Source: Patescibacteria group bacterium (GTDB taxonomy: Bacteria > Patescibacteriota > Patescibacteriia > JAXHNJ01). From it: a stretch of 64,000 nucleotides of DNA. Where the stretch lies: NCBI GenBank assembly GCA_034520665.1, contig JAXHNJ010000002.1, forward strand, positions 179,166-243,165. Reading direction: 5' to 3'. The notes under the pieces are model-generated. The model searched no databases, was not told the origin of the DNA, and saw only the letters and a program-made list of their open reading frames with translations. Of this stretch, positions 1,696 to 54,983 are shown in pieces (within the stretch, counting starts at the first letter, position 1; every line of letters starts with the position of its first letter). Both the position numbers and the translations under genes were made by a program.

Positions 1696-1912
1696 AAAAT
1701 TCTAAGCGGACCCGATCTCCCTTTGGGAGACGATCTTCTCCGTGACCCCACACTATATTTGCTTCTTTCACAAGTGCAAAGCCGACAAAAGAGATACTAA
1801 AATTCTAAGCGGGCCCGATCTCCCTTCGGGAGACGATCTTCTCCGTGACCCCACACTATATTTGCTTCGCTCATATGTTTGGGGCAAGCAGGGAGATATA
1901 CTAAAATTCTAA
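1696..1912. repeat. Two tandem ~103-bp units, each a degenerate copy of the 3' part of the adjacent tRNA-Asp gene plus its 3' flank
   Basis: Units begin at 1701 and 1804 and share 68 nt (tctaagcggacccgatctccc-TTTG/TTCG-gggagacgatcttctccgtgacc...). Versus the real gene at 1914-1988 they keep the acceptor 3' strand, the variable region and the anticodon 3' stem. The T-arm hairpin is replaced by a different 6-bp GC hairpin, TCTCCC-loop-GGGAGA. Confidence 0.75.
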
Positions 1913-1913
1913 G

Positions 1914-1988
1914 CGGACCCGACGAGATTTGAACTCGCGATCTTCTCCGTGACAGGGAGATGTGTTAGACCAGCTACACCACGGGTCC
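1914..1988 (-). tRNA. tRNA-Asp (anticodon GTC)
   Basis: The reverse complement folds as a cloverleaf: acceptor GGACCCG/CGGGTCC, D-stem GTGT/ACAC, anticodon stem TCTCC/GGAGA with loop CTGTCAC, T-arm GCGAG-TTCAAAT-CTCGT. The gene is embedded in a 16-bp perfect inverted repeat, aattctaagcggaccc / gggtccgcttagaatt. Confidence 0.85.
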
Positions 1989-10410: not shown

Positions 10411-11871
10411 TTAATTTTTTAATTCTTTTCTAAAAAGTGGTTTTTTTATTAATATTATAATAAGGAAAATAATTAGATATATAATTAATATTAAATTAAA
10501 ATCAAAGTTTTCTATGGCAAAAGAAGAGAATTTTATCTCACTTAAAAAACTAGCTGCTCCACTAATATATTTTAAAAGTAAATAACAAGGCCAAAATATT
10601 AATTGCCCCAAAGGTAAAAATATTAAGGAAAAAATTACACCCAGAAAACCGCTGATTAAGACAAAGGGTAAAACCGGCAGAACTAATACGTTAGCCAGAG
10701 GAGCAATTAAAGAAAATCTTTGAAAATAAAAAATTATTAAAGGCAGAGTAAAAAACTGGGCTGAGAGAGTCATTAAAACCGTACTTTTTATATTGAAAAT
10801 TTCCGGAACTTTTTCTACTAATTTTTCTAAATAAGGACCAATATAAATCAAACCCAAAACGGCTAAAAAAGAGAGCTGAAAACCAATATCATATCTTAAC
10901 AATTTAGGATTAACCAAAAGCATTAAACTGCCAGCTAGGACAAAAGCATTAGTCGAATTATTTAACCGGCCTAGATACATAGCCAATAAAACCAGAAAAC
11001 CCATAATGCCGGCTCGCACGGCTGAAGACGGCATACCCACCAAAATAATAAATAGAAATAATCCGGCACTTGCCAGCCAAAAAGCTCGTCGGCGGTTTAA
11101 ACCCAGACCCAAGGCTAAATTCATCAAAATACCGGCAATAATAGTGATGTGGAGCCCGGAAATGGCAATAATATGACTGATACCGGCTTTAGAAAAATTA
11201 TCCCTAACCTCATCGGGAATTTCCTTTTTAAGGCCTAGCATCATAGCTTGCAAAATTGAAGACTGCGGTTGTTTAAGACTGATCTTAATAGTTTCAGACA
11301 TGTGATTTCGTATTTTATATATATTGGCTAAAAACCAAGTCCCCTTATTTCTTTCTATAATCTCTATTTTCGGTTTATAGCTAACTAAATAAATATTATA
11401 ACGACTTAGATAGGACCGATAATCAAAATCCTCAAAATTTTCTGGCTCTTTTATCTCTCCGGTTATTAATAAGATATCTCCGTAATGATATTCCGGATAT
11501 AAACCAGAGGTGATTAATAAATTCTCATTTTTTAAATGGCTTTCTTTTATTTTTACTTTAACTTTTTGATTATCTCCTTTTGTCGGTTCCTTATAAACTA
11601 AACCTTTTAATTTTTGATTATTACTCTCTATTTGGGGCGGCTCTTTAATGCTTAACTGAAATCTAACCAGACCAGCCAGACAAAAAATTAAACAAAATAA
11701 AATAATTCTAAAAATTTTATACTGCCAAAATAAAATTATTAAAAAAATAATAATTATCAATAAAATGAATAAATAAAAATAATTAAAATAAAAAAAGGAA
11801 GCCAAAGCTAGGCCCAAAATAAAAGAAATTAATAAATATAAAAATATTTTTGATTTAGAAAAATAATTCAT
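10411..11871 (-). CDS. comEC: ComEC/Rec2 N-terminal part: DUF4131 plus the polytopic competence channel domain (486 aa)
   Basis: GISHIIAISGLHITIIAGIL...MPSSAVRAG is typical of the ComEC competence domain. Many TM helices are present. It ends TAA-TT-ATG against the MBL ORF, in a different frame. Confidence 0.8.
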   Translation of the reverse strand: MNYFSKSKIFLYLLISFILGLALASFFYFNYFYLFILLIIIIFLIILFWQYKIFRIILFCLIFCLAGLVRFQLSIKEPPQIESNNQKLKGLVYKEPTKGDNQKVKVKIKESHLKNENLLITSGLYPEYHYGDILLITGEIKEPENFEDFDYRSYLSRYNIYLVSYKPKIEIIERNKGTWFLANIYKIRNHMSETIKISLKQPQSSILQAMMLGLKKEIPDEVRDNFSKAGISHIIAISGLHITIIAGILMNLALGLGLNRRRAFWLASAGLFLFIILVGMPSSAVRAGIMGFLVLLAMYLGRLNNSTNAFVLAGSLMLLVNPKLLRYDIGFQLSFLAVLGLIYIGPYLEKLVEKVPEIFNIKSTVLMTLSAQFFTLPLIIFYFQRFSLIAPLANVLVLPVLPFVLISGFLGVIFSLIFLPLGQLIFWPCYLLLKYISGAASFLSEIKFSSFAIENFDFNLILIIYLIIFLIIILIKKPLFRKELKN

Positions 11872-12412
11872 TTATTTTATCTTCATTTATATATTGATAA
11901 GGTTGTTTTGAATACTTTTTTGATAAATTATGCTTTTTATAATTATATTTAATGTAATTAATTGTATTACGGAGTCTTTTTGGGGTATTAATAATGCGAA
12001 AATTAAAACGAGTATGCCAAGGTGAATAAAAAATATTATATTGATTTCGCAATTGATAGCAATAATATGATTTAACAGCATGCATTAGATCAGATATATT
12101 ATATTTACTACGGCTCGTTGTGGCTGCATTTTTAATTTTTCTTTTATTTTTTTCACTGCGGCCCGCTGTGGCCGCAGTTTCAAAAAGAGCAGGCGCAGCG
12201 GCCAGCGCTGGAATAAATTTTACTAACATATGAATATGATTATTTAAAATACTAAAAATATAAGGAAGAAAAAACTTTTTCTTACTGGAAATAAGAACAA
12301 TTTTATATAATAATTTTGCCTTTTTTGTATCGGCAAAAAAAGGGTAATTATTTTTTGTATTAAAAGTAACAAAATAGGGAAATATATTTTGATATATCCT
12401 TCTTTGAGTCAT
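11855..12412 (-). mobile_element. IS200/IS605-family (Y1 HuH, RAYT-like) transposase-like gene, 185 aa. A single gene with no obvious IS ends.
   Basis: HuH motif NNHIHMLV. A C-terminal Tyr-containing helix, NTINYIKYNY, is comparable to IS608 TnpA YIENQ. An Ala/Gly/Arg-rich segment, TAATAGRS...AATTSRS, sits where IS200 TnpA has TAKGRSSR. It overlaps the comEC 5' end by 17 nt. Confidence 0.55.
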
Positions 12413-19399: not shown

Positions 19400-19635
19400 C
19401 TCTCCTTAATAAAAAAACCCTGACTTCGGCAATTAAACAAGGGTTTTTAAAATTATTAAATCTTTCTACCGAAGATTTGTTATCTAAAAGGTGTCCTGGC
19501 TTACAGAGGATTGGCTCGTCAGCCCCTTCCCCTAAAAAAGAGTGGTTATGGCCGCCTGGCTTCTCTGCTTACAGTGACGGGATCGCGCCGGATTTGTTTT
19601 TGACTTAAAAGCAAAACGCACCGGTCTTCCCTTTT
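19400..19635 (-). promoter_or_regulatory. Cobalamin (B12) riboswitch with an intrinsic-terminator expression platform
   Basis: The minus strand reads ...GGTGCG...AAATCCGGCGCGATCCCGTCACTGTAAGCAGAGAAGCCAGGCGGCC.... This matches the cobalamin aptamer consensus (GAAUCCGG, the B12 box CCCGCCACUGUAA with one substitution, and AAGCCAGGA). A hairpin AACCCTTG...CAGGGTT plus a U7 tract is followed by the AAGGAG RBS of the DUF4430 gene. Confidence 0.8.
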
Positions 19636-19674
19636 TTTCTTAAAAATTTTATTTTTAAGAAAAATATTTAATTA

Positions 19675-20208
19675 TTAATATTCAATACCTTTTCTTGCTT
19701 TTAATCCCTGGTCAAAATAATGCTTGTTTTTATTCATGATAGTTACCAAATCTGCTAGCTTAATAATTTTATCATGAGCGTTTCTTCCCGTCAAAACAAT
19801 CTCTGTGGATAAAGAATTATTTTTTAAAAACTTAATGAGTCTATCTTTTTTTATTAAACCAAAATCAAGGGCCACATTAATTTCATCTAATATTACTAAA
19901 TTATATTTTTTATTTTTAATTTTTTTAATGGCATAGGCCAAGCCTTTTTCGGCTCTTTCAAAATCTTCTTTTTTTATTTTGCTCTTATCAATAAATTTAT
20001 GGCTACCAAATTGTTTAATTTCTAAATTATTAAATTTTTTTAAGGCCTTAATTTCACTATAATCTCCTTTTTTCATAAACTGTATAATCAGGACTCGAAA
20101 ACCAGCTCCTAAGGCCCTTAAAGCTAAGCCTAAAGCAGCTGTAGTTTTTCCCTTACCTTCTCCCGTATAAACTTGAATCATATTTAGCCTAATGAACAGG
20201 CTGACCAA
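19675..20208 (-). CDS. cobO: Cob(I)yrinic acid a,c-diamide / cob(I)alamin adenosyltransferase (CobO/BtuR family)
   Basis: IQVYTGEGKGKTTAALGLALRALGAGFRVLIIQFMKK is the BtuR P-loop signature. The start may be the internal ATG at 20181, directly after the nrdJ stop. Confidence 0.85.
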   Translation of the reverse strand: MVSLFIRLNMIQVYTGEGKGKTTAALGLALRALGAGFRVLIIQFMKKGDYSEIKALKKFNNLEIKQFGSHKFIDKSKIKKEDFERAEKGLAYAIKKIKNKKYNLVILDEINVALDFGLIKKDRLIKFLKNNSLSTEIVLTGRNAHDKIIKLADLVTIMNKNKHYFDQGLKARKGIEY

Positions 20209-28081: not shown

Positions 28082-31000
28082 TTAAGGGCTGGAAACCCAA
28101 TAATCAAAACTATCACAAGAAGCTGAGGAAATACTGTCACATATATCAAATTCACTGGTACTAGCATCCCAATAAGTGTTATCTGTCTCAAGATTAACAT
28201 ATAAATTATAATTTACCCCGTGATCAGTTTGATAGGCATAAATAGAAGAACCGGAGCTGCAAAGAAATTCTTTATTCTCTTCATCCCAGCAGGTATTAGG
28301 CGGAAAACTAGGACAAATAGCTTCATTTAAAGGATCAACTGGTAAACTCTTGCCTAAAGCATTACCTAAACTAGCCTGCCAGGAAGGCCATATAGAAGTG
28401 CTCATATTAGAAATATAACTGCCGGATTCTAACATAGGATAGGGTGCTTCAATTTCTTCTATTTTAAAATCATCAACCCAAGCCACATCATTACTCTCCA
28501 CAACACCTCTATGTCGGGCTATAAATCTGATTGAACGATCAGCTTTATTGGCATAAACAATATTAGTTATTTTTGTCCAATCATTATCACCATAAATATA
28601 ATCCGTATGACTGTTTAGATCACAACCTGTCCAGTCAAAGCTATGAATACTGGTTATTAAACATTCCGAATGAATTTCAAATCCTAAATCACCCGTATCA
28701 TCGTTATCATCTGTATCATCGTGATCATCTGTTTTTACCCAAGCTGTAAGTTTATAGGTTTTACCATAAGTAACCGGAACATCCTGAAGAACATAACGGC
28801 GACTAGCCGCAAGATCCGACGAATCGTAGGTACCACCCTTTAATTCCACAGAATTATTTCCTGTATGGGCTTGGCTGGAATCAACATTAACCTCTGACGA
28901 AAAAGAACCAGGTGTTTCCCAAACTTGTTCATCAGTGGAACTCACAATAGTATAAACATCTTCAAATCCAGGGCTATTAACAAGATTTGTTTCAGAAGAA
29001 CTTGGCTGATTAGCCCGATAATCTTCAAGATAACCAGTGATAGTCCTTAAATCAGCAATTCTTTTTAAATCCCTGATAATCTTTTCTTTTTCCCCAGCCG
29101 TAGTAATATTTGTATTAAAAGTCCAATAGTCAATTAACTGATCATATATATTTTTTATTTTTGAATCAGCCCCTTTATTATAGGAAATTAGATATATATT
29201 TGAATAAAGTGTACCACTGTCATAATTTGTAGCTCCAACATACACCGTTCTTCCGTCACGCACGGCCCGGTAACCGTCTACTGTAGTAGACTGGGGAGAG
29301 CCTTGATCTTTTATATTTTGTTTATACCATTCTTGCGGAGTCAGCGCCTCCGGGTTAGCATAAATACGAATACCAATGCCATCATCAGTTACTTCACAAG
29401 TGCCGCTTGTACAATTTAAAGGACTGCTAGGGTCCTTCGAACATCTTTGATGGCCTTCAGAACAACGGCCTGATTCTTTGAATAAATATTGTTTTAAAAC
29501 GTCGCCGGATTCTCCTCTGACTACGCTCATATCTAAATCCGGTAAAATATTACTGGAAAATTGACATTTTTGTCCGACATAATCACTGCAACATTCTTCA
29601 TCAGTCGGACAAGAAGTTTGATAATCCAAAGTGCAAACTGTATTAGTGGTTCCCTCACAAACGCCATAATCACCCCGGCAATAAAATAATTTAAAATTAT
29701 AATCATTACTACAACCGTCCGCGTTAATATCACAGTTACTAGCTGCTTCTTCAAATTCCCAGGGCATATCACAAAAAATTACTTCAATTTCAGCACTGGC
29801 TTTTTTACTGCCAGTCCAGCCCGTACCAGCTTGGGCTTCACTTCTAAGCCAGGTCTGGCCATTTTTTACTGGACTAGCTGTTTGAATAGGGTTAGCCGTA
29901 CAAATACCGTCCGGACAATCATCATTATTAACACAACTATCACCGTCATAAGTACCACCATTACATTTAAGATCATTGTTTACAGTAGCAATATCTTTAT
30001 TATCCATAGACCAATGCCAAGCCCAATCATAAACCCCTAATATTGATTGAATAGAATTGTCATTATCATCATAAGCTGAAGCAGTAAAATCTCGGGTTTC
30101 AGTTTTACTGGTAAACATATGATGAGAAGGATTTAAATCAATATAATCAATTTCACAAGGATCATTAGTATCAGCCGTGGTAAAACTAAAACTATCAGCT
30201 ACCATAGAAACGCCCTTAGTATTTTCAATATCATTAGTAAGATTAACAGTATAAGTAGTACTGCCCTTTAATAAGTCATTAAGATTTATTCTCACCCTGT
30301 CATCATAAGAGCTAATAGTATATGAAGCCACTCCGCCCGTTAATGTAATATTTGAATCATTCAAAGTGCTTTGATCCATATTCTGATCAAAATTTACTTC
30401 AATTAAATTATTTAAACAAACATTTGGCTCTCCGTCAGTTGGAATGGTACTACTAACTGATGGCCGGTCATAACAACAGCCGTCATCACCACAGCCCTGG
30501 CCAACCGGACAATCACCGTCATTATTACAAATATCACAAGAAGGGGGTCTAACTGTAAAAGGCCAGGTGTTACTGGCAACTCCGTCATTAAAAAGCTGTA
30601 TATTTCCGGTTTCCGCGCCTAAAGGCACGGTTGTTTCCACCATTGTATCATTAGCCCAGGAAACATAATTTGTAACATCTACCCCATCATGAAAAGTAAC
30701 TCGGTCTTCGTCAATTGGTAGGGCGTCTCTAGAACTGCCAAAATTTTTACCCTTTATTTCTACATCGGTAATATTTTCCTTGCCTAGGTTGGGATTAAGA
30801 GCGCAAATACCCGGCCTAACCGTGGAATTCACCTCAAAATAACCATCCGTAAGTACATAAGGAGCCGTGGTAAAATCACTGCTTTCAATACTATAGCTAT
30901 ACCCGCTGGCTAGATCTCCGCCTCTTACGCGAAAAGGATGATCTCCAGAGTCAGCATCATCGCTAAGATCAGCCGTTTTGCTGTTAGGCACTTCCCTTAA

Positions 31001-34000
31001 TATAAGATAATTTTTCCAAGTATCTCCGCAAATACTTTCATTAGGTTTAAGAGCCTCCTTGTCAGTCTGAAAAATTACTTTGCTTAAACTAGAGTCATAA
31101 TTGCCAAACCAACAGCCGGCTATACTGACCCAGGTGCCAATAGCCCCGTCCTTGGGCGAAAAATCATTAATCACTGGAGAGCAGTGGTTATTAATACAAG
31201 TGCTGCCTGGACAGGATATTTCTGTTCCGTCTTCAGTTATTAGATTTTCACAGTCTTCATCAGTCACACAAATAGTGGGATCATTAATAATGGTAAATTT
31301 TTCTTTTCTACTAACTGCAGAAGCTGTAACAGTTACTTCTGGCTCATCGCTTGGGTAATAAGGTGGAGGTGGGGTAATATAATGGGCTGTAAATGTTTGT
31401 TTTGGGTCAGTACGACCATCACTATTCTTATCATAATTAGTAAAAGTTCCATAGGGATCGTCAATCGGCGGACTAACCATAGGATTCTTTCTATGACTAA
31501 CTTTCCAGGCCCAATCATAAGAATTGGCAATAAGCATTTGACCAGTAGCCGGGTTACATTCATCCGGAGAACCGTAAGCAAAAGCCTCATAATCTTCTGT
31601 ATTGCCCACGGTAATCGTAGGATCTTTAGGAGTTAGATCAGCAGAAGCAATAGAACAGGCTGTTGGGTCATCTTTAGTCTTAAAGGTCCAGGAAAAACTG
31701 TCATCTGTACCGTCTTCGTCAGCGTCATAATTAATATTGGCTAAAGGCTCACTATCACTATCACTTACTATATTATTATTTAATATTACCCGGTAATAGG
31801 TGTCCGGATTTAAATAACTATCCGGGGTTAGAATGGCTTTTTTTTCCGAGGTATTATAGGTAGGGGTAATACTTACTGGACCATCCAAAGTAGTGCTGTC
31901 ACAAGCCGCCGCATCATGCTCTTCTAAAGTTATATTCGTATTATTAATAGTAGAACTATCCATAGCAATATTAAAGTTTGTTTCCGGCACTGTGTTAATA
32001 CAAGCAGTGCCACAATCAGGCCAGTAATTAGTGACAATAGGCACCCCTGGCGGCAGCTCACAAATATTAAAATCAATACTATTAGAGCTGCCAGTATCAT
32101 TAGTCACATATACATTACCGTCAGTAGTTTCATCAGCTGGCGGCTTGGGAGGAACCTGGCTTTGAATCTTTGTGTCAGTCCAATCACCAGCGTTTATTGA
32201 ATCAACATAAGGATATGAGGGGACAGCCTGAAATTCCACGTCTTTGGTGCTGGTACTAGCTCCGTCTTCAAAACGTATTCCTTCTAGAGTTAGATTTGAA
32301 CTCGGATAACATGAACCACTAATAGAAAATAAACAAGGGCCATTGGCTAGATCATTAGTATTATAATAAAATTCAACTCCTTTAGAAGTTAGAGTGCCAT
32401 AAGTGGCATCATCATAAGTAAGATCAACAGTTACTTCAGGCCGGTCTCCACTAGAAAATGTAGCCGGTGAAGTAGTCACTATATGATTTTCTCCGGAAGC
32501 TTCCAAGGATGCTGAAGTAGTGTCAAAATTAACCGCTGTGGGATTAGCAATCAAGCCAGTAGTTTTCTTTAAACACTGGCCATGGATGGTGATACATTCA
32601 CCCGGTCCACCTTTATTTGGGTCTAAACCAGTGATAAAAGGACCGCAGGTGCAATCTTCAGGAGCCGTAACATCAAAATCCCATAATGGTATACCTTCTA
32701 AGAATCCGCCACTAGAATCAATAACTCGGTCTGTTCTAACTGTTATTGAATAATTTGTACCTGGAGTAAGCGGTGTGGCCGGAGTTAACTCAAAAACCTT
32801 GAAATGATTACTGCTTGGAGCTCCCGGATCCGTAATCTCTAAAGTGCCAAAACCAGAAGGAGCGGTCCTAGTATAAGGCGGACTAATAGTATCAGCCGCC
32901 GGCATAATAACTTGATTACCATTTACAGTAAAGCTAACTTCATTAAAATACATGCTGGTATTAAAAGTAACTATTATCTTTGTATCCGGACAAACATTTG
33001 AACCAGTCGGATACCAACTATTAAAACCAGCTACTTTATCATTAGTTTGAAATTCCAAAACTGGCATGGAAACCATAACATTACCACACAAATCCTCAAC
33101 ATCTTGCACTGTTACTCGATACCAGGTAAAAGGCTCAAGATTATTTGGGGCTATTAGGGAAAGATGAAAACCGTTGCTTTTTTCTGAAATTTCTAAGAAA
33201 TTAGCGTCAATATAAGTATCCGCATCAGTGTCTAATTTATCATCAAATTGGGGAGTACCGCCTTGACTATCTATTTTCTGTAATTGTATATTATTGGAAT
33301 TAGGTTGAGGTGGATTAACTGAATCAATAACTGTGCTGGCATCTATATTCTCAGAAAAATTAATATCAATAATCGGCTCACGATTAACATTTGTATCAGG
33401 ATACCCAGTATCTCCAGTATGTATCGGATAGGTAGTAGTTACTTCCGGTGGAGTGGTATCCATTATATTATTAGTTCTAAAACTGCAAACAACTCGATTA
33501 TTAGGAGCATCTGCATTGCAGTTAACTGTCGGTCCGATAAAAGCACTGCCAGCAATATCTAAAGATAAGGTATCTTTATCATTAATTGTTTCCGGTAAAT
33601 AAAGATTATAATCTGTATCAGCCTTAAAAACCATCAAATCACAAGTGTCACTAGCACCACCGCATTCACCGTCATCCATACAGCTTTGAGTGTTGTCGTT
33701 TGAGCAAACTTTTGGGTGCTTAAAAGTAATACTTTTACCAGAAGTGATCCAGGTACCTTCTTTTACTACACCTAAATCGTCTTCAATATATAAAGTACCG
33801 CTTGATACAGCGCCATCAACTGTTGTTTTTTCCACGTTATTATTAAATATTGGCTGAATACGGCTGCACATATAGACTTCACTGCCATCATTAGAAGTTT
33901 GCACTTCATTAAGATGAAAAGATTGGCCAGCAAAAGTACACCCGGGTATGGTAAGATCAAAATCATAACCATCCCCACTAGCATTACATATAAGACAACC

Positions 34001-34429
34001 ATCAGAAGGATGAGGAGTCCCTGTAGTACAACTGATACCACCACCACCTGAAGAATTAGTAACAAAGCCCTCAACAAACAGAACAATAGCCCAGGATAAG
34101 AGTATAATCACGATGCCAATAACTGTGTTGACAATTACTTTCTTAGCTTTGGCGATCTTTTCTTCGTTGCCTTTTGAAGTCATCCAAAGAATACCGCCAT
34201 AGATTAAAAAAGAAACCGCTACTAAGCTGACAATGCCTAATACCCACTTAATAATATTAATAACAATCTCCTTCAAATTCATTGAACTCAAACCAATGGT
34301 GCCACCTATCTCCCCAATACTATATGAAGTCTGAGCTAAGGTTTGGTTATGTAAAATAAAAAACCCTCCCATCGCCAGAATGGTGATTATTAAAAATAAT
34401 ATTTTTTGTTTTCTGTTAAAAAAGCCCAT
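28082..34429 (-). CDS. Giant (2115 aa) Cys-rich cell-surface protein, with an N-terminal two-helix pilin-like (TrbC/VirB2-like) membrane hairpin, Ig-like repeats and a C-terminal CBM4/9-like domain
   Basis: The N-terminus is ...IIKWVLGIVSLVAVSFLIYGGILWMTSKGNEEKIAKAKKVIVNTVIGIVIILLSWAIVLFVEG. Then ~2000 aa of Thr/Ser/Cys-rich repeated modules. The C-terminus ...NSVELKGGTYDSSDLAASRRYVLQDVPVTYGKTYKLTAWVK resembles a carbohydrate-binding module. Confidence 0.7.
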   Translation of the reverse strand: MGFFNRKQKILFLIITILAMGGFFILHNQTLAQTSYSIGEIGGTIGLSSMNLKEIVINIIKWVLGIVSLVAVSFLIYGGILWMTSKGNEEKIAKAKKVIVNTVIGIVIILLSWAIVLFVEGFVTNSSGGGGISCTTGTPHPSDGCLICNASGDGYDFDLTIPGCTFAGQSFHLNEVQTSNDGSEVYMCSRIQPIFNNNVEKTTVDGAVSSGTLYIEDDLGVVKEGTWITSGKSITFKHPKVCSNDNTQSCMDDGECGGASDTCDLMVFKADTDYNLYLPETINDKDTLSLDIAGSAFIGPTVNCNADAPNNRVVCSFRTNNIMDTTPPEVTTTYPIHTGDTGYPDTNVNREPIIDINFSENIDASTVIDSVNPPQPNSNNIQLQKIDSQGGTPQFDDKLDTDADTYIDANFLEISEKSNGFHLSLIAPNNLEPFTWYRVTVQDVEDLCGNVMVSMPVLEFQTNDKVAGFNSWYPTGSNVCPDTKIIVTFNTSMYFNEVSFTVNGNQVIMPAADTISPPYTRTAPSGFGTLEITDPGAPSSNHFKVFELTPATPLTPGTNYSITVRTDRVIDSSGGFLEGIPLWDFDVTAPEDCTCGPFITGLDPNKGGPGECITIHGQCLKKTTGLIANPTAVNFDTTSASLEASGENHIVTTSPATFSSGDRPEVTVDLTYDDATYGTLTSKGVEFYYNTNDLANGPCLFSISGSCYPSSNLTLEGIRFEDGASTSTKDVEFQAVPSYPYVDSINAGDWTDTKIQSQVPPKPPADETTDGNVYVTNDTGSSNSIDFNICELPPGVPIVTNYWPDCGTACINTVPETNFNIAMDSSTINNTNITLEEHDAAACDSTTLDGPVSITPTYNTSEKKAILTPDSYLNPDTYYRVILNNNIVSDSDSEPLANINYDADEDGTDDSFSWTFKTKDDPTACSIASADLTPKDPTITVGNTEDYEAFAYGSPDECNPATGQMLIANSYDWAWKVSHRKNPMVSPPIDDPYGTFTNYDKNSDGRTDPKQTFTAHYITPPPPYYPSDEPEVTVTASAVSRKEKFTIINDPTICVTDEDCENLITEDGTEISCPGSTCINNHCSPVINDFSPKDGAIGTWVSIAGCWFGNYDSSLSKVIFQTDKEALKPNESICGDTWKNYLILREVPNSKTADLSDDADSGDHPFRVRGGDLASGYSYSIESSDFTTAPYVLTDGYFEVNSTVRPGICALNPNLGKENITDVEIKGKNFGSSRDALPIDEDRVTFHDGVDVTNYVSWANDTMVETTVPLGAETGNIQLFNDGVASNTWPFTVRPPSCDICNNDGDCPVGQGCGDDGCCYDRPSVSSTIPTDGEPNVCLNNLIEVNFDQNMDQSTLNDSNITLTGGVASYTISSYDDRVRINLNDLLKGSTTYTVNLTNDIENTKGVSMVADSFSFTTADTNDPCEIDYIDLNPSHHMFTSKTETRDFTASAYDDNDNSIQSILGVYDWAWHWSMDNKDIATVNNDLKCNGGTYDGDSCVNNDDCPDGICTANPIQTASPVKNGQTWLRSEAQAGTGWTGSKKASAEIEVIFCDMPWEFEEAASNCDINADGCSNDYNFKLFYCRGDYGVCEGTTNTVCTLDYQTSCPTDEECCSDYVGQKCQFSSNILPDLDMSVVRGESGDVLKQYLFKESGRCSEGHQRCSKDPSSPLNCTSGTCEVTDDGIGIRIYANPEALTPQEWYKQNIKDQGSPQSTTVDGYRAVRDGRTVYVGATNYDSGTLYSNIYLISYNKGADSKIKNIYDQLIDYWTFNTNITTAGEKEKIIRDLKRIADLRTITGYLEDYRANQPSSSETNLVNSPGFEDVYTIVSSTDEQVWETPGSFSSEVNVDSSQAHTGNNSVELKGGTYDSSDLAASRRYVLQDVPVTYGKTYKLTAWVKTDDHDDTDDNDDTGDLGFEIHSECLITSIHSFDWTGCDLNSHTDYIYGDNDWTKITNIVYANKADRSIRFIARHRGVVESNDVAWVDDFKIEEIEAPYPMLESGSYISNMSTSIWPSWQASLGNALGKSLPVDPLNEAICPSFPPNTCWDEENKEFLCSSGSSIYAYQTDHGVNYNLYVNLETDNTYWDASTSEFDICDSISSASCDSFDYWVSSP

Positions 34430-37678: not shown

Positions 37679-37908
37679 AAAAATTTATATTTCTTTAAAA
37701 AACCTGGTGGGCCTAATAGGAGTTAAATCCCTCGATGCTACGCGGGAAAGGTTCTATGACCCTTTTAACTCTTTTAGTTTACTCTACCCTAGTAAAATGA
37801 CAAGTGAATATAAATGATATGGTGGACGATGAAGGACTTGTCACCCTACGGGTGATCCTCCGAAGGAGGAAACCAGAGACTTCTATCGCCCGCCTGCCAA
37901 AGCAGTCA

Positions 37909-37967
37909 TGGTCGCACCTGGACTTGAACCAGGGACTTCTATCGTGTGAGGATAGCGCTCTTACTCC
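37909..37967 (-). pseudogene. tRNA-like fragment with Val-CAC-like anticodon arm, T-arm and acceptor 3' strand. The 5' acceptor/D-arm is replaced by a GC hairpin element.
   Basis: The reverse complement reads GGAGTAAGAGCG-CTATC-CTCACAC-GATAG-AAGTC-CCTGG-TTCAAGT-CCAGG-TGCGACC-A. No matching 5' acceptor strand (GGTCGCA) is present. Instead it is preceded by the CGTCCCGC-TTT-GCGGGACG hairpin and GGATCC. Confidence 0.4.
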
Positions 37968-38033
37968 CGTCCCGCAAAGCGGGACGTGGATCCTCGAAGT
38001 TCTAGCGAAATCGAAGATTTCGATAACTTCGGG

Positions 38034-38105
38034 ACAGCTGAGCCCCGTCTCCCGCAGGGAGACGGGATCCCGATTTCCGACAAAGTCGGAACATCGGGAC
38101 TAATC
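38034..38105. repeat. 72-bp direct repeat, copy 1 of 2 (copy 2 at 38468-38539, one mismatch). Contains a perfect 10-bp-stem hairpin plus GGGATCC.
   Basis: acagctgagCCCCGTCTCCCgcaGGGAGACGGGatcccgatTTCCGACaaaGTCGGAAcatcgggactaatc occurs twice, 434 bp apart, bracketing the GIY-YIG gene and tRNA-Val. Confidence 0.85.
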
Positions 38106-38342
38106 GTTACATATTTTCTTAATTATTTTTGCGCTTTTCTTTTTTTTCAAAAATCTCTCTCTTTGATAAGCTGATTCTATATTAGGATATTTTTCTAATC
38201 TTACAAGAATGAAAGGCTGACGATGTTTTGTGGACTTGGATAATCCTTTATTATGTTCTGAAAAACGCTTATTAAAATTATTTGTTACCCCAATATAATA
38301 CTTAAAATCTTTTTGGCTTTTTAATATATAAACATAATACAT
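38100..38342 (-). CDS. GIY-YIG nuclease superfamily protein (80 aa)
   Basis: MYYVYILKSQKDFKYYIGVTNNFNKRFSEHNKG matches the GIY..YIG..R..EH motif. Confidence 0.8.
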   Translation of the reverse strand: MYYVYILKSQKDFKYYIGVTNNFNKRFSEHNKGLSKSTKHRQPFILVRLEKYPNIESAYQRERFLKKKKSAKIIKKICND

Positions 38343-38351
38343 ATTTTACTA

Positions 38352-38425
38352 TGGGCGCGATAGGACTTGAACCTATGACCTTACGGATGTGAACCGTACA
38401 CTCTGACCAGCTGAGCTACGCGCCC
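38352..38425 (-). tRNA. tRNA-Val (anticodon CAC)
   Basis: Reverse complement: GGGCGCG-TA-GCTC-AGCTGGTCA-GAGT-G-TACGG-TTCACAT-CCGTA-AGGTC-ATAGG-TTCAAGT-CCTAT-CGCGCCC-A. Confidence 0.85.
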
Positions 38426-38467: not shown

Positions 38468-38539
38468 ACAGCTGAGCCCCGTCTCCCGCAGGGAGACGGG
38501 ATCCCGATTTCCGATAAAGTCGGAACATCGGGACTAATC
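38468..38539. repeat. 72-bp direct repeat, copy 2 (see 38034-38105)
   Basis: Identical to copy 1 except gacaaag/gataaag. It lies just 5' (on the minus strand) of tRNA-Val. Confidence 0.85.
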
Positions 38540-39226
38540 ATCCACGAAAACGGAAACTAAATACATTTTTAAATCAATCTTTTGGCTAAAATAAACCAAA
38601 GATAGGCAAATTATAGCATAAAAAAAGAGCTAAATCAAATAAAAATTTTGCTTATTATATTTACTTTATTATTTTTTGTCATTTTTTTTAATATACATCA
38701 TCTTTTTATTATAACTGATAAGAATGGCATTAAAAATAGTAAGATACAAATTATTTTATAGCATTAAAACATAAGCGAAAGTTTATAAAGTTTTATTATT
38801 ATTAACCTATAATATTACTTACAATTTATTCAGGCCGTTATATAACCACATGAAATCAAAAAAACAACATAATTCAATATAAAATACTTGATCATCAAGA
38901 TTAACACTATTTGAGCTAGAAGTATAATAAATTATCGTTAAGATTTTCAGAAAATAATATAAAATTTTACTCCCAATTTTTATGAGTTATTATTTTATAA
39001 AAATTTAAATTACTATCCTTTTATAATTACTCTGTAATAAAAATTAATTTTATTTATTATATCATCAGAATTGTCAACACTACTATTTTTACCTACTGGT
39101 AAGAATTCAAAGTTAGCCACATATTTTCATAATTATGAGGGTCACTGTTTTAACTATTGCCTGGATTATATTTTTCTGGTGGTTTATTTTTTCTTTTGTC
39201 TTACGGCCGCCAAAAAGAAAATGTGT

Positions 39227-53229: not shown

Positions 53230-53313
53230 GCCGCGGTGGTGGAATTGGTAGACACGCTGGATTCAAAATCCAGTGAGGGCAACCTCATGAGAGTTCAAGT
53301 CTCTCCCGCGGCA
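53230..53313 (+). tRNA. tRNA-Leu (anticodon CAA)
   Basis: GCCGCGG...CTGGA-TTCAAAA-TCCAG with a long variable arm TGAGGGCAACCTCAT, then GAGAG-TTCAAGT-CTCTC-CCGCGGC-A. Confidence 0.85.
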
Positions 53314-54083: not shown

Positions 54084-54190
54084 AATACTTGACCTTTGGT
54101 ATTATTTTTGTTAAGATAGATTGTAAATACTCTAACAAAAAAATAGCGTGGAGTGGGATCCTGTCCCTTTTCAAAGAAAGAGTAGTATAT

Positions 54191-54362
54191 TGAAAAACTT
54201 GAAAATATAAAGACATCATCAATCTTAACAACATCGCGGGGTGGAGTCCCGTCCCGTTGAGCGGGACGAGGATCCGCGTTATCATCATATAACGATGATA
54301 ACGGGACAGTGGTATATTGAAAAACTTGAAATAAAAAAAGATATCATCAATCTTAACAACAT
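54191..54362. repeat. Partial duplication of the tRNA-fMet 5' flank plus its first 12 nt, fused to GC hairpin elements
   Basis: gaaaaacttgaaa...atcatcaatcttaacaacatCGCGGGGTGGAG occurs at 54191-54245 and again at 54318-54375 (the real gene). The first copy continues into TCCCGTCCCG-TTGA-GCGGGACG-AGGATCC and a 10-bp-stem hairpin, CGTTATCATC-atataac-GATGATAACG. Confidence 0.75.
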
Positions 54363-54437
54363 CGCGGGGTGGAGCAGTGGCAGCTCGCCGGGCTCATAAT
54401 CCGGAGGTCGAGGGTTCGAATCCCTCCCCCGCAACCA
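54363..54437 (+). tRNA. tRNA-Met (anticodon CAT), initiator-like, CCA encoded
   Basis: CGCGGGG-TG-GAGC-AGTGGCA-GCTC-G-CCGGG-CTCATAA-TCCGG-AGGTC-GAGGG-TTCGAAT-CCCTC-CCCCGCA-A-CCA. The C1xA72 mismatch is typical of the bacterial initiator. Confidence 0.8.
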
Positions 54438-54462: not shown

Positions 54463-54906
54463 GCCAGGGTAGCTCTCGCCCGCTAGCGCCTGAGCGCAAG
54501 CGATGGCGAGCGGGTAGTTGATTAGAGCGTATATTAAATTTTAAAAGCTAAATTATACTACTATAAATTATAAGCCAGGGTAGCTCTCGCCCGCTAGCGC
54601 CTGAGCGCAAGCGATGGCGAGCGGGTAGTTGATTAGAGCGTATATTAAATTTTAAAAGCTAAATTATACTACTATAAATTATAAGCCAGGGTAGCTCTCG
54701 CCCGCTAGCGCCTGAGCGCAAGCGATGGCGAGCGGGTAGTTGATTAGAGCGTATATTAAATTTTAAAAGCTAAATTATACTACTATAAATTATAAGCCAG
54801 GGTAGCTCTCGCCCGCTAGCGCCTGAGCGCAAGCGATGGCGAGCGGGTAGTTGATTAGAGCGTATATTAAATTTTAAAAGCTAAATTATACTACTATAAA
54901 TTATAA
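54463..54906. repeat. Tandem array of four identical 111-bp units, each beginning with the first 13 nt of the downstream tRNA-Met gene
   Basis: Units start at 54463, 54574, 54685 and 54796. Each reads GCCAGGGTAGCTC + tcgcccgctagcgcctgagcgcaagcgatggcgagcgggtag + ttgattagagcg + a 40-nt AT-rich tail. A fifth unit at 54907 is the intact tRNA. Not CRISPR-like: there are no unique spacers. Confidence 0.9.
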
Positions 54907-54983
54907 GCCAGGGTAGCTCAGTTGGTTAGAGCACGGGACTCATAAGCCCGGGGTCGTGGGTTCGAATCCCACCCCTGGTACCA
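54907..54983 (+). tRNA. tRNA with CAT anticodon (elongator Met, or Ile2/lysidine type), CCA encoded
   Basis: GCCAGGG-TA-GCTC-AGTTGGTTA-GAGC-A-CGGGA-CTCATAA-GCCCG-GGGTC-GTGGG-TTCGAAT-CCCAC-CCCTGGT-A-CCA. Confidence 0.8.

Follow-up and report, generated by a model that had tools for sequence, protein, structure and literature searches.

In a stretch of 64,000 nt from a Patescibacteria group bacterium (contig JAXHNJ010000002.1; the whole stretch is called the window below), short GC-rich hairpins with a GGATCC motif are fused to fragments of tRNA genes. With slightly better than even confidence, these elements are interpreted as the cis-acting repeats of a small nuclease-plus-repeat cassette that lives in Patescibacteria tRNA genes. 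The cassette is composed of a gene for a small GIY-YIG nuclease and an inverted pair of hairpins, the module. On one side it has an intact tRNA gene, on the other a truncated copy of the same isoacceptor that is interrupted by the module. Such a cassette would be selfish or recombinogenic, colonizing tRNA genes while keeping one copy intact. A sequence-only reading of the window had suggested that the hairpins are possibly mobilized by a HuH protein encoded at 11855-12412. This partner is wrong: The partner of the hairpins is the GIY-YIG nuclease gene, to which they are joined in the window and in at least 12 loci.

Hairpin modules and their partner gene

The unit has the consensus NAG/TCCCGAYG-(variable inner palindrome)-RTCGGGA/TCC, deduced from 16 non-redundant modules of other genomes and the window whose right halves were reverse-complemented first. 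Two inverted units form one module with two-fold symmetry, and GGATCC is merely the GGA/TCC joint between them. The foot of the unit is invariant across genomes and tRNA types and not derived from tRNA, and the inner stem is variable yet paired. In the unit alignment, 98.4% of 321 cells are paired, compensatory double changes occur at 7 of the 13 pairs (51 cells compared to 15 in shuffles), and 3 of the 321 cells are G-U. Left and right units, which lie on opposite strands, give one shared consensus. The unit structure appears to be under selection. Because the same unit is found on both strands and wobble pairs are nearly absent, selection on DNA hairpins and a role at the DNA level are favoured over selection on RNA hairpins and a role at the RNA level. 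The window modules fold as two tandem hairpins with z values of -6 to -8 (DNA fold of module M1: -25.6 kcal/mol, z -7.8). A second module subtype, TCCC-GTCCCGC..GCGGGAC-GNGGATCC-hairpin-GGGA, is present in two window copies, 37965-38034 and 54247-54306, and also in the comparison loci L020, L040 and L048.

A covariance model (CM R1) was built from 25 units of other genomes and one window unit and used for an unfiltered scan of the whole window. Below E 0.01 it finds six units only, which belong to four modules (E 2e-13 to 0.0055 for the 64-kb window; Table 1). tRNA-derived sequence surrounds all six, namely a pseudo-tRNA resembling tRNA-Val (anticodon CAC), pieces of the D arm and the first 12 nt of tRNA-fMet. 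Matches in the window are confined to tRNA-Val and fMet fragments. Perfect GC-rich hairpins of at least 6 bp are rare: The window has 8 such loci, 4 of which are the tRNA-flanking elements. GGATCC itself occurs 8 times, 5 times in tRNA-flanking elements (37988, 38065, 38499, 54156 and 54270). Across 57 other loci, the model yields 49 matches, every one in loci of close GIY-YIG relatives. A simple pattern, GTCCCGN5CGGGACGNGGATCC, scanned over genome contigs returned mostly chance matches in high-GC genomes and three informative Patescibacteria loci. Viral contigs scanned for the module centre gave 22 matches, none of them a real unit (0 CM matches). A mini double hairpin, TCCCGACTGAAGTCGGGA/TCCCGATCGYTGTCGGGA, is found in the unrelated IMG/VR viral contigs L133, L135, L136, L139 and L150 (GC 0.52-0.62); it has foot and joint as in the module and very short stems and lies below the CM threshold.

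The Val and fMet elements were found at the positions given by the sequence-only reading, which had described a dispersed hairpin-plus-GGATCC family fused to tRNA fragments at four tRNA loci. The loci are three, and its Asp hairpins (1716-1745 and 1819-1848) drop out of the family: The corresponding hairpins, 1707-1748 and 1810-1851, lack GGATCC and match the CM with E 9.8. The elements 38043-38072 and 38477-38506 do flank tRNA-Val, as mere parts of a 72-bp direct repeat that contains a two-hairpin module and a D-arm piece. The change between 54247-54275 and 37966-37993 that had been called compensatory affects the loop (caaa vs. ttga) and not the stem; true compensation is seen only across genomes. 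In outline, the proposal of a mobile or recombinogenic hairpin family tied to tRNA genes stands, since the elements occupy varied tRNA genes and positions in both orientations and the Val site is empty or differently filled in relatives.

The partner gene, an 80-aa open reading frame (ORF), begins 9 nt past the intact tRNA-Val. Its stop codon TAG (38100-38102) abuts the module at TCCCGATG, and another, 5'-truncated tRNA-Val follows. No Shine-Dalgarno sequence precedes the ATG; the ORF is probably expressed from the tRNA promoter with the help of tRNA 3' processing. By its domain and conserved residues, all of which are present, the ORF product is assigned to the GIY-YIG nuclease superfamily: The motif residues Y16, G18, R26, H30 and E62 are invariant and Y5 is nearly so among 26 homologues. 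Homologues are 79 to 112 aa long, and the window protein is identical to the NCBI Patescibacteria protein P0001. Profile matches in the PDB are UPF0213, SLX1 and I-TevI, the nearest being standalone UPF0213 and SLX1 rather than I-TevI. The PADLOC defence annotation gives a single marginal match for the protein (E 0.005).

The intact tRNA-Val is of the resident type, as it is near-identical to the lone tRNA-Val in the empty site of the relative L128. Two copies of the 72-bp direct repeat (38034-38105 and 38468-38539), each comprising the last two ORF codons, the whole module and the D-arm piece, bracket the segment of spacer, tRNA-Val and ORF with a period of 434 bp, the copy 38468-38539 lying upstream of tRNA-Val. 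Downstream of the cassette, three tRNA-Val 3' parts with different acceptor stems follow (Table 1). The anticodon arm of the remnant 37909-37964 matches the intact tRNA-Val of the relative L127. The T loop of the fragment 37820-37887 carries a two-hairpin insert, TCCTCC..GGAGGA/TCACCC..GGGTGA (37841-37870). The fragment 37705-37762 has a decayed TCCC..GGGA insert in its T loop and adjoins the signal peptidase gene, where relatives carry a tRNA 3' end. Read in terms of the cassette, the tRNA-Val locus has been invaded at least three times in succession. In the window, L127 and L128 alike, the ancestral promoter region is kept upstream of tRNA-Val. No terminator-like site was found between the promoter-like sites (38610-38682) and the signal peptidase gene, and none inside the array.

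In relatives, the orthologous tRNA-Val site was located through the neighbouring signal peptidase. In L128 (neighbour 63% identical) the site is empty, with one tRNA-Val in a 189-nt intergenic region. In the closer relative L127 (neighbour 89% identical), a 5' fragment contains a decayed module, and the resident tRNA-Val is split, with an intact tRNA-Val lying inside it; there is no ORF. In the window, the site spans 1548 nt. The relatives with the empty and the differently filled site are not the same species as the window. Logan short-read contigs of the same strain, which are independent of the assembly, are 100% identical to the window and end at 38063 and 54244, within repeats. As identical contigs stop inside the repeats, the structures at the tRNA loci are not specific to one assembly.

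The layout intact tRNA - ORF - TAG - module - tRNA from position 11 is found in at least 12 independent metagenomic loci. The ORF stop TAG followed by the module and CTCAG... (tRNA from position 11) is shared by the window, L060, L064, L072, L074, L075, L078, L079, L080 and L087. Of 21 non-redundant loci of close homologues, 19 have an intact same-strand tRNA whose end lies between -1 (1-nt overlap) and 21 nt before the start codon; these tRNAs are specific for Met, Val (three anticodons), Thr, Lys and Ile. The stop codon is usually TAG and stands in one of two contexts. In the first, the module and CTCAG(Y)TGG... follow, so that TAG corresponds to tRNA T8-A9-G10 and the module sits at 10/11; in the second, AGC... 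follows directly and TAG is that of the D-loop sequence GG-TAG-AGC. The exceptions, L086 and L088, are mirror images: A 5' remnant, CGCCGGGTAG, with a hairpin is followed by the ORF and by an intact fMet tRNA whose TAG serves as the ORF stop. The fMet locus of the window has this mirror layout, but lacks the ORF. In L081 (1486-1785), L085 (142-432) and L087 (1501-1818), the TAG stop is lost and the ORF runs through the module (C-terminal ...SSPDV...) to end in the tRNA D loop.

Modules interrupt tRNA sequence at 10/11, 12/13, ~18/19, 24/25, 35/36, 38/39 and in the T loop. They occur in either orientation, and many Patescibacteria-like contigs contain them. The commonest junction lies exactly between tRNA positions 10 and 11 (AG/CT). 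L040 has a module at 10/11 of a tRNA-Ala 5' fragment beside the intact gene, and L081 has modules at 10/11 and 24/25. In L064, an intact tRNA-Ala is nested in a module that splits another tRNA-Ala at 35/36. L020 carries a 337-bp tandem unit of tRNA-Glu 1-35, a second-subtype module and an ORF. The L020-type nuclease is ~45% identical and flanked by this second subtype, which is counted as a cognate pairing of nuclease and module subtype. Tandem units without an ORF (2 x 135 bp, GT-TAG-module-tRNA-Lys(11-76)) are found in L073. Nucleases that are 78-80% identical reside at different tRNAs (tRNA-Lys and tRNA-Met). Remnant and intact copy are identical or near-identical in some loci (65/65, 71/72 and 37/37 positions); elsewhere, the window included, the remnant is a diverged allele. 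As the ORF meets the tRNA on its left side at positions 73-76, the intact copy is often without an encoded CCA and the remnants keep theirs. In L065 (2200-2900), tRNA-Gly genes lie on either side of a GIY-YIG homologue that is enclosed by an inverted repeat of 15 nt, CCCCCCACCACTTTT / AAAAGTGGTGGGGGG. Upstream of it is ~300 nt of GC-richer DNA, and the arrangement resembles an ORF in the loop of a structured RNA; no Rfam match was obtained at gathering score.

Related systems and a possible mechanism

The closest known system is that of the Ssn nucleases. Ssn proteins have ~94 aa and a single GIY-YIG domain, bind the hairpin repeats (NTS/SRM) that flank their own gene and cleave single-stranded DNA (ssDNA) a few nt upstream of the hairpin; they do not act on double-stranded DNA (dsDNA) or RNA (Chenal et al., 2025, Nat Commun, PMC11893778). 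In both systems the proteins are small (80-100 aa; window protein 80 aa) and consist of a single GIY-YIG domain, and the gene is flanked by short hairpin repeats with a conserved foot, often in inverted pairs. The spacing of the catalytic Tyr/Tyr/Glu residues is alike, too (Y5, Y16 and E62 in the window protein, Y6, Y17 and E64 in N. meningitidis SsnA). A 94-aa protein of a Rhizobium plasmid is 41% identical to the window protein (BLASTP E 2e-14) and is flanked by five canonical SRMs, CGTCATCCCAGGG..CCCTGGGATCCAC, which share the foot TCCC...GGGATCC with the window units. It scores 51 bits with the family profile, compared to 41 bits for the solved UPF0213 proteins. The units differ from SRMs in their 5' NAG, where SRMs have GTC, and in a nested stem that is longer and includes a bulged G. 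The SRM pattern HGTCWYN(0-2)YYVSBRHN(0-5)WNVSBRGN(0-2)RNCYNB is matched by no module, and its single match in the window lies off the tRNA loci. Furthermore, the repeats of the window family are few and confined to tRNA-derived DNA, whereas SRMs occur in hundreds of copies genome-wide. The gene of the window family is fused between a tRNA gene and its truncated duplicate, and the Ssn paper is silent on tRNA (PMC11893778). By analogy, the window system resembles Ssn/SRM and may work in a similar way. In the Patescibacteria-like contig L080, an inverted pair of canonical NTS-like SRMs (TGTCATTCCCGCGCAGGCGGGAATCCAG, positions 26-98) is located ~900 nt upstream of the tRNA-Val/GIY-YIG cassette.

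Other systems share single traits. REP, BIME and REPIN elements with their REP-associated tyrosine transposases (RAYTs) likewise have inverted pairs of imperfect palindromes, a short 5' flank that is conserved and, presumably, ssDNA hairpins as substrate. REP/REPIN systems comprise a single-copy enzyme gene and inverted imperfect palindrome pairs, and REPs are extragenic and numerous. By contrast, the enzyme linked to the window family is of the GIY-YIG and not of the HuH type, and the units are embedded in tRNA copies. The mobile GC clusters of yeast mitochondria are GC-rich palindromes in an AT-rich genome with short AG-containing targets, often located by free-standing endonuclease ORFs. 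They are, however, organelle elements without a tRNA-internal target, a TCCCGA foot or a demonstrated nuclease partner of the GIY-YIG type. Phage T4 SegB is a free-standing GIY-YIG homing endonuclease encoded in a tRNA gene cluster; it is reported to promote its own inheritance by cutting tRNA-region DNA, with co-conversion of the flanks (PMC2330249). A GIY-YIG nuclease gene among tRNA genes is common to both. Unlike the window family, SegB-type enzymes have a DNA-binding domain, cut dsDNA and make neither hairpin modules nor truncated tRNA duplicates. Group I introns that lie within tRNA genes in Patescibacteria, the same phylum, interrupt these genes at unusual sites including 35/36 (2026, PMC13011429), which is also a module site in L020 and L064. 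In the loci studied here, however, the interrupted copies lack one tRNA end, so that splicing could not restore them, and have an intact copy next to them. In the literature searched, no account was found of a cassette of nuclease and hairpins that resides inside tRNA genes.

The most likely mechanism is predicted as follows. An Ssn-like nuclease would bind its cognate hairpin when the DNA is single-stranded, in the course of replication, transcription or uptake (genes for ComEC and DprA are present in the window). Nicks would be made a few nt 5' of the foot, at or near the module/tRNA junction, on each strand. As the two units are inverted, nicks would be placed at both module boundaries on opposite strands. 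The proposed cut site agrees with a junction that recurs at the TAG just 5' of the module. The breaks would be repaired by recombination with a neighbouring or incoming homologous tRNA copy, and repair would copy the cassette into tRNA genes. One functional tRNA would stay and the host would thereby survive. Remnants of tRNA 3' parts downstream and of 5' parts upstream would result, along with nested tRNAs and tandem arrays.

It is tempting, though distinctly more tentative than the cassette interpretation, to postulate an undescribed class of tRNA-gene-specific mobile elements: an Ssn-type ssDNA nuclease with an inverted hairpin pair that moves between tRNA genes, also those of different isoacceptors, disables the resident copy (typically at 10/11) and supplies or regenerates an intact tRNA. 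If this were true, the host could not lose the cassette without risk, and nested, serially displaced tRNA genes and a fast turnover of tRNA loci in the ultra-small Patescibacteria genomes would result. For the partnership of Ssn-type nuclease and hairpin, the cassette interpretation itself would mean a second, quite different genomic lifestyle inside essential tRNA genes, with a functional copy beside the broken one. It points to a concrete, testable enzyme-substrate pair, an 80-aa protein and a hairpin of ~30-35 nt. It would account for Patescibacteria tRNA loci that are full of pseudo-tRNAs, interrupt short-read assemblies and vary from one close relative to the next, and it bears on tRNA annotation and completeness estimates of reduced genomes. 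Should the nuclease cut ssDNA in a sequence- and structure-specific manner with a new specificity (NAG/TCCCGAYG), it would add to the few ssDNA-specific endonucleases.

Several points weigh against the cassette interpretation. Every mechanistic step, and with it nuclease activity, cleavage and transposition or homing, is a prediction from sequence. A simple homing model fails to explain how the intact tRNA in the cassette-bearing allele escapes cleavage, and insertion would have to rely on host recombination, because GIY-YIG enzymes cannot religate. Duplication can proceed or persist without a local nuclease, as L073, L127 and the fMet, elongator-Met and Asp loci of the window have no ORF. The Asp and elongator-Met hairpins differ in sequence and may be of other origin. 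Among 55 homologue loci, canonical SRMs are present in L080 only, no more than in shuffles. Since the units fail the SRM pattern and the homologue loci apart from L080 are without canonical SRMs, membership in the Ssn family (cd10448) is unproven. Finally, the comparison loci were chosen via the nuclease or via the hairpin, which leaves the 64-kb window as the sole unbiased sample.

Alternative explanations

Four other explanations have to be weighed against the cassette. The first assumes no dedicated element at all: GC hairpins would arise locally where fragile and strongly transcribed tRNA genes undergo repair by fold-back or template switching, slippage would then generate tandem partial copies, and the GIY-YIG gene would be a passenger that prefers tRNA-adjacent sites for expression. 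Perfect tandem arrays (4 x 111 bp and 2 x 103 bp in the window, 2 x 135 bp in L073, 337 bp in L020) and the occurrence of arrays without an ORF are in line with it. At tRNA-Asp, the hairpin GTCTCCC..GGGAGAT repeats in inverted form the strand ATCTCCC from the anticodon stem of the same tRNA. As it is such an inverted duplicate, fold-back repair rather than insertion of the TCCCGA family is suggested there, and this explanation may apply to the Asp and elongator-Met hairpins. Local fold-back is, however, expected to yield locus-specific palindromes, whereas the foot TCCCGAYG/RTCGGGA is invariant across genomes and tRNA types and does not come from tRNA sequence. As a general explanation, it is considered improbable.

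Equally improbable as a full account is a role at the RNA level, according to which modules and truncated tRNA-like tails serve as tRNA decoys or help to process or stabilize a joint transcript of tRNA and mRNA. The tRNA promoter precedes the entire array, in which there is no terminator-like site, and the ORF begins 0-21 nt after the tRNA 3' end without a Shine-Dalgarno sequence. Moreover, hairpins replace some tRNA arms at equal length (the T arm in the Asp copies, 17 nt by 17 nt; the anticodon arm in L089, 17 nt by 16 nt), and the remnants keep a tRNA-like fold (37-40 bits with the Rfam tRNA model). Against this, modules occur in both orientations relative to tRNA and ORF, one unit consensus is read on both strands, G-U pairs are as rare as stated above, and no Rfam family matches. 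SsnA, the characterised relative, does not bind RNA (PMC11893778). A role at the RNA level is compatible with the cassette as a secondary function.

The third alternative retains the HuH protein: The hairpin pairs would be REP/REPIN-like and moved in trans by a RAYT-like HuH enzyme, with the GIY-YIG gene as an unrelated neighbour. The architecture of the module is indeed REPIN- or BIME-like, with two inverted imperfect palindromes each containing a bulged base. The HuH ORF (11855-12412) resembles the REP-associated tyrosine transposases of NF047646 (E 1.6e-12), but its 47.5 bits are well below the curated cut-off of 80; Pfam Y1_Tnp gives 24.6 bits. Whereas RAYT genes are typically flanked by their own REPs, this ORF overlaps comEC by 17 nt and has no CM unit within kilobases in the window scan. 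No HuH homologue was detected by tblastn in roughly 70 unit-bearing loci, while units abut GIY-YIG ORFs in at least 12 independent loci. The two window modules of the second subtype share the + strand orientation though their tRNAs are on opposite strands; over all loci, the orientation of modules relative to the tRNA goes both ways. The HuH protein was therefore rejected as the mobilising enzyme, and the explanation built on it is very unlikely. The ORF itself has an Ala-rich low-complexity insert with a perfect 9-bp GC hairpin (12155-12178).

Least probable of the four is the view that the tRNA fragments are attL/attR scars of serial integrase-driven integration and loss of islands or prophages, the hairpins being incidental terminators or junk: Such fragments are reported to be common in prokaryotes (bioRxiv 10.1101/2022.07.05.498093), the 3' fragments downstream of tRNA-Val with differing acceptor stems, all ending in CCA, look like successive 3'-end displacement, and a tyrosine recombinase gene adjoins the tRNAs of L064; however, there is no integrase at the window loci and no integrase island between the fragments in L127 and L128, only 50-130 nt separate the fragments, att sites at the 3' end do not agree with the 5' fragments that precede intact tRNAs (fMet, elongator Met, L040, L086, L088), no terminator-like T tracts follow the hairpins, and the units have a conserved foot, covariation and a fixed 10/11 site.

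Three further candidates were rejected. Split or permuted tRNAs and archaeal-type introns do not fit, as every fragment is accompanied by an intact tRNA and is itself short of one acceptor strand. Group I introns are not supported: No Rfam intron match was obtained at gathering score in the window and six loci, and the interrupted copies are without their 5' or 3' part. A simple Campbell-type or homing model with an element-borne tRNA segment misfits loci in which remnant and intact tRNA agree and belong to an isoacceptor other than that of the nearest nuclease relative.

Other loci and features of the window

The window contains five tRNA genes (ARAGORN, Rfam), four of which are adjoined by partial self-copies with a GC-rich hairpin; tRNA-Leu has none. 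Directly upstream of the intact initiator tRNA lies the fragment F1, preceded by F0, a decayed copy. In terms of the cassette, the fMet locus is read as a relic that has lost its ORF, and the same might hold for the Asp and elongator-Met loci. Each of the four 111-bp units before elongator tRNA-Met consists of tRNA 1-13, a 40-nt GC hairpin (TCGCCCGCT...AGCGGGT), 14 nt of the D arm and a 44-nt spacer. This array displays the same syndrome with another type of hairpin sequence and is outside the hairpin family. In each of the two Asp units, which cover the tRNA from its anticodon loop through its 3' end, GTCTCCC-RAA-GGGAGAT takes the place of the T arm. The elongator-Met array, the tRNA-Val 3' fragments 37820-37887 and 37705-37762 and the GIY-YIG ORF are absent from the sequence-only reading. 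The spacers after the fMet, elongator-Met and Asp fragments all start with TATATT on the + strand. They were considered as relics of the nuclease N-terminus (V-Y-I-L), but tblastn found no significant remnant; the idea is plausible and mere speculation.

Table 1. Positions of hairpin units, modules, tRNA genes and tRNA fragments in the window
Feature	Position	Strand	Basis
GIY-YIG nuclease ORF, 80 aa, single domain	38100-38342	-	Pfam PF01541 E 2e-17, residues 1-71
CM units, minus strand	38065-38103, 38499-38537	-	CM scan
CM units, plus strand	37961-37993, 38039-38070, 38473-38504, 54243-54275	+	CM scan
Promoter-like sites upstream of whole tRNA-Val array	38610-38682	-	TGcTATAAT region conserved with L127, L128
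Second copy of 72-bp direct repeat: last 6 nt of ORF (GATTAG), module M2 (38478-38533), GCTCAGCTGT	38468-38539	-	99% identity; CM 53.7 and 19.4 bits
Intact tRNA-Val(CAC), without encoded CCA	38352-38425	-	ARAGORN; Rfam 69.6 bits
Module M1, two tandem hairpins TCCCGATG..ATCGGGA / TCCCGTCTCCC..GGGAGACGGG, GGATCC at joint	38044-38099	-	CM 54.5 and 19.4 bits
D-arm piece GCTCAGCTG after M1	38035-38043	-	sequence
Module M3, second subtype, in D loop of Val-like pseudo-tRNA, reverse relative to tRNA	37965-38034	-	CM 21.7 bits; fold z -6.8
Second tRNA-Val(CAC) allele, D stem 3' strand to CCA, acceptor TGCGACC, without 5' acceptor strand	37909-37964	-	sequence reading
Older tRNA-Val 3' fragment, anticodon-stem 3' strand to CCA, acceptor ATCGTCC	37820-37887	-	sequence, fold
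Oldest tRNA-Val 3' fragment, variable loop to CCA, acceptor TAGGCCC	37705-37762	-	sequence and relatives
fMet fragment F0: decayed copy of F1 unit, GCGTGGAGTG-GGATCC-TGTCCC and same spacer	54146-54234	+	sequence
fMet fragment F1: tRNA 1-12 (54235-54246), 60-nt second-subtype module (54247-54306), CAGTGG, 50-nt spacer	54235-54362	+	CM 18.5 bits; fold z -6.1
Intact initiator-type tRNA-Met (C1:A72 mismatch)	54363-54437	+	ARAGORN, Rfam
Four perfect 111-bp tandem units before elongator tRNA-Met	54463-54906	+	repeat search
Elongator tRNA-Met	54907-54983	+	ARAGORN, Rfam
tRNA-Leu	53230-53313	+	ARAGORN, Rfam
tRNA-Asp	1913-1988	-	ARAGORN, Rfam
Two 103-bp units after tRNA-Asp	1696-1906	-	repeat search, sequence

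The DNA is bacterial, with a GC content of 34% over the window. A cobalamin riboswitch (19469-19679, minus strand, 72.9 bits) is located upstream of a minus-strand operon, and the initiator tRNA has a C1:A72 mismatch. A 153-nt periodic repeat (2218-2901) lies in the gene of a 1079-aa NHL/FG-GAP repeat protein and represents ordinary protein-repeat periodicity. A 2115-aa ORF (28082-34429, minus strand) has T4SS_pilin and Big_5 domains, and its place beside the HisRS/signal peptidase block is kept in L127 and L128.

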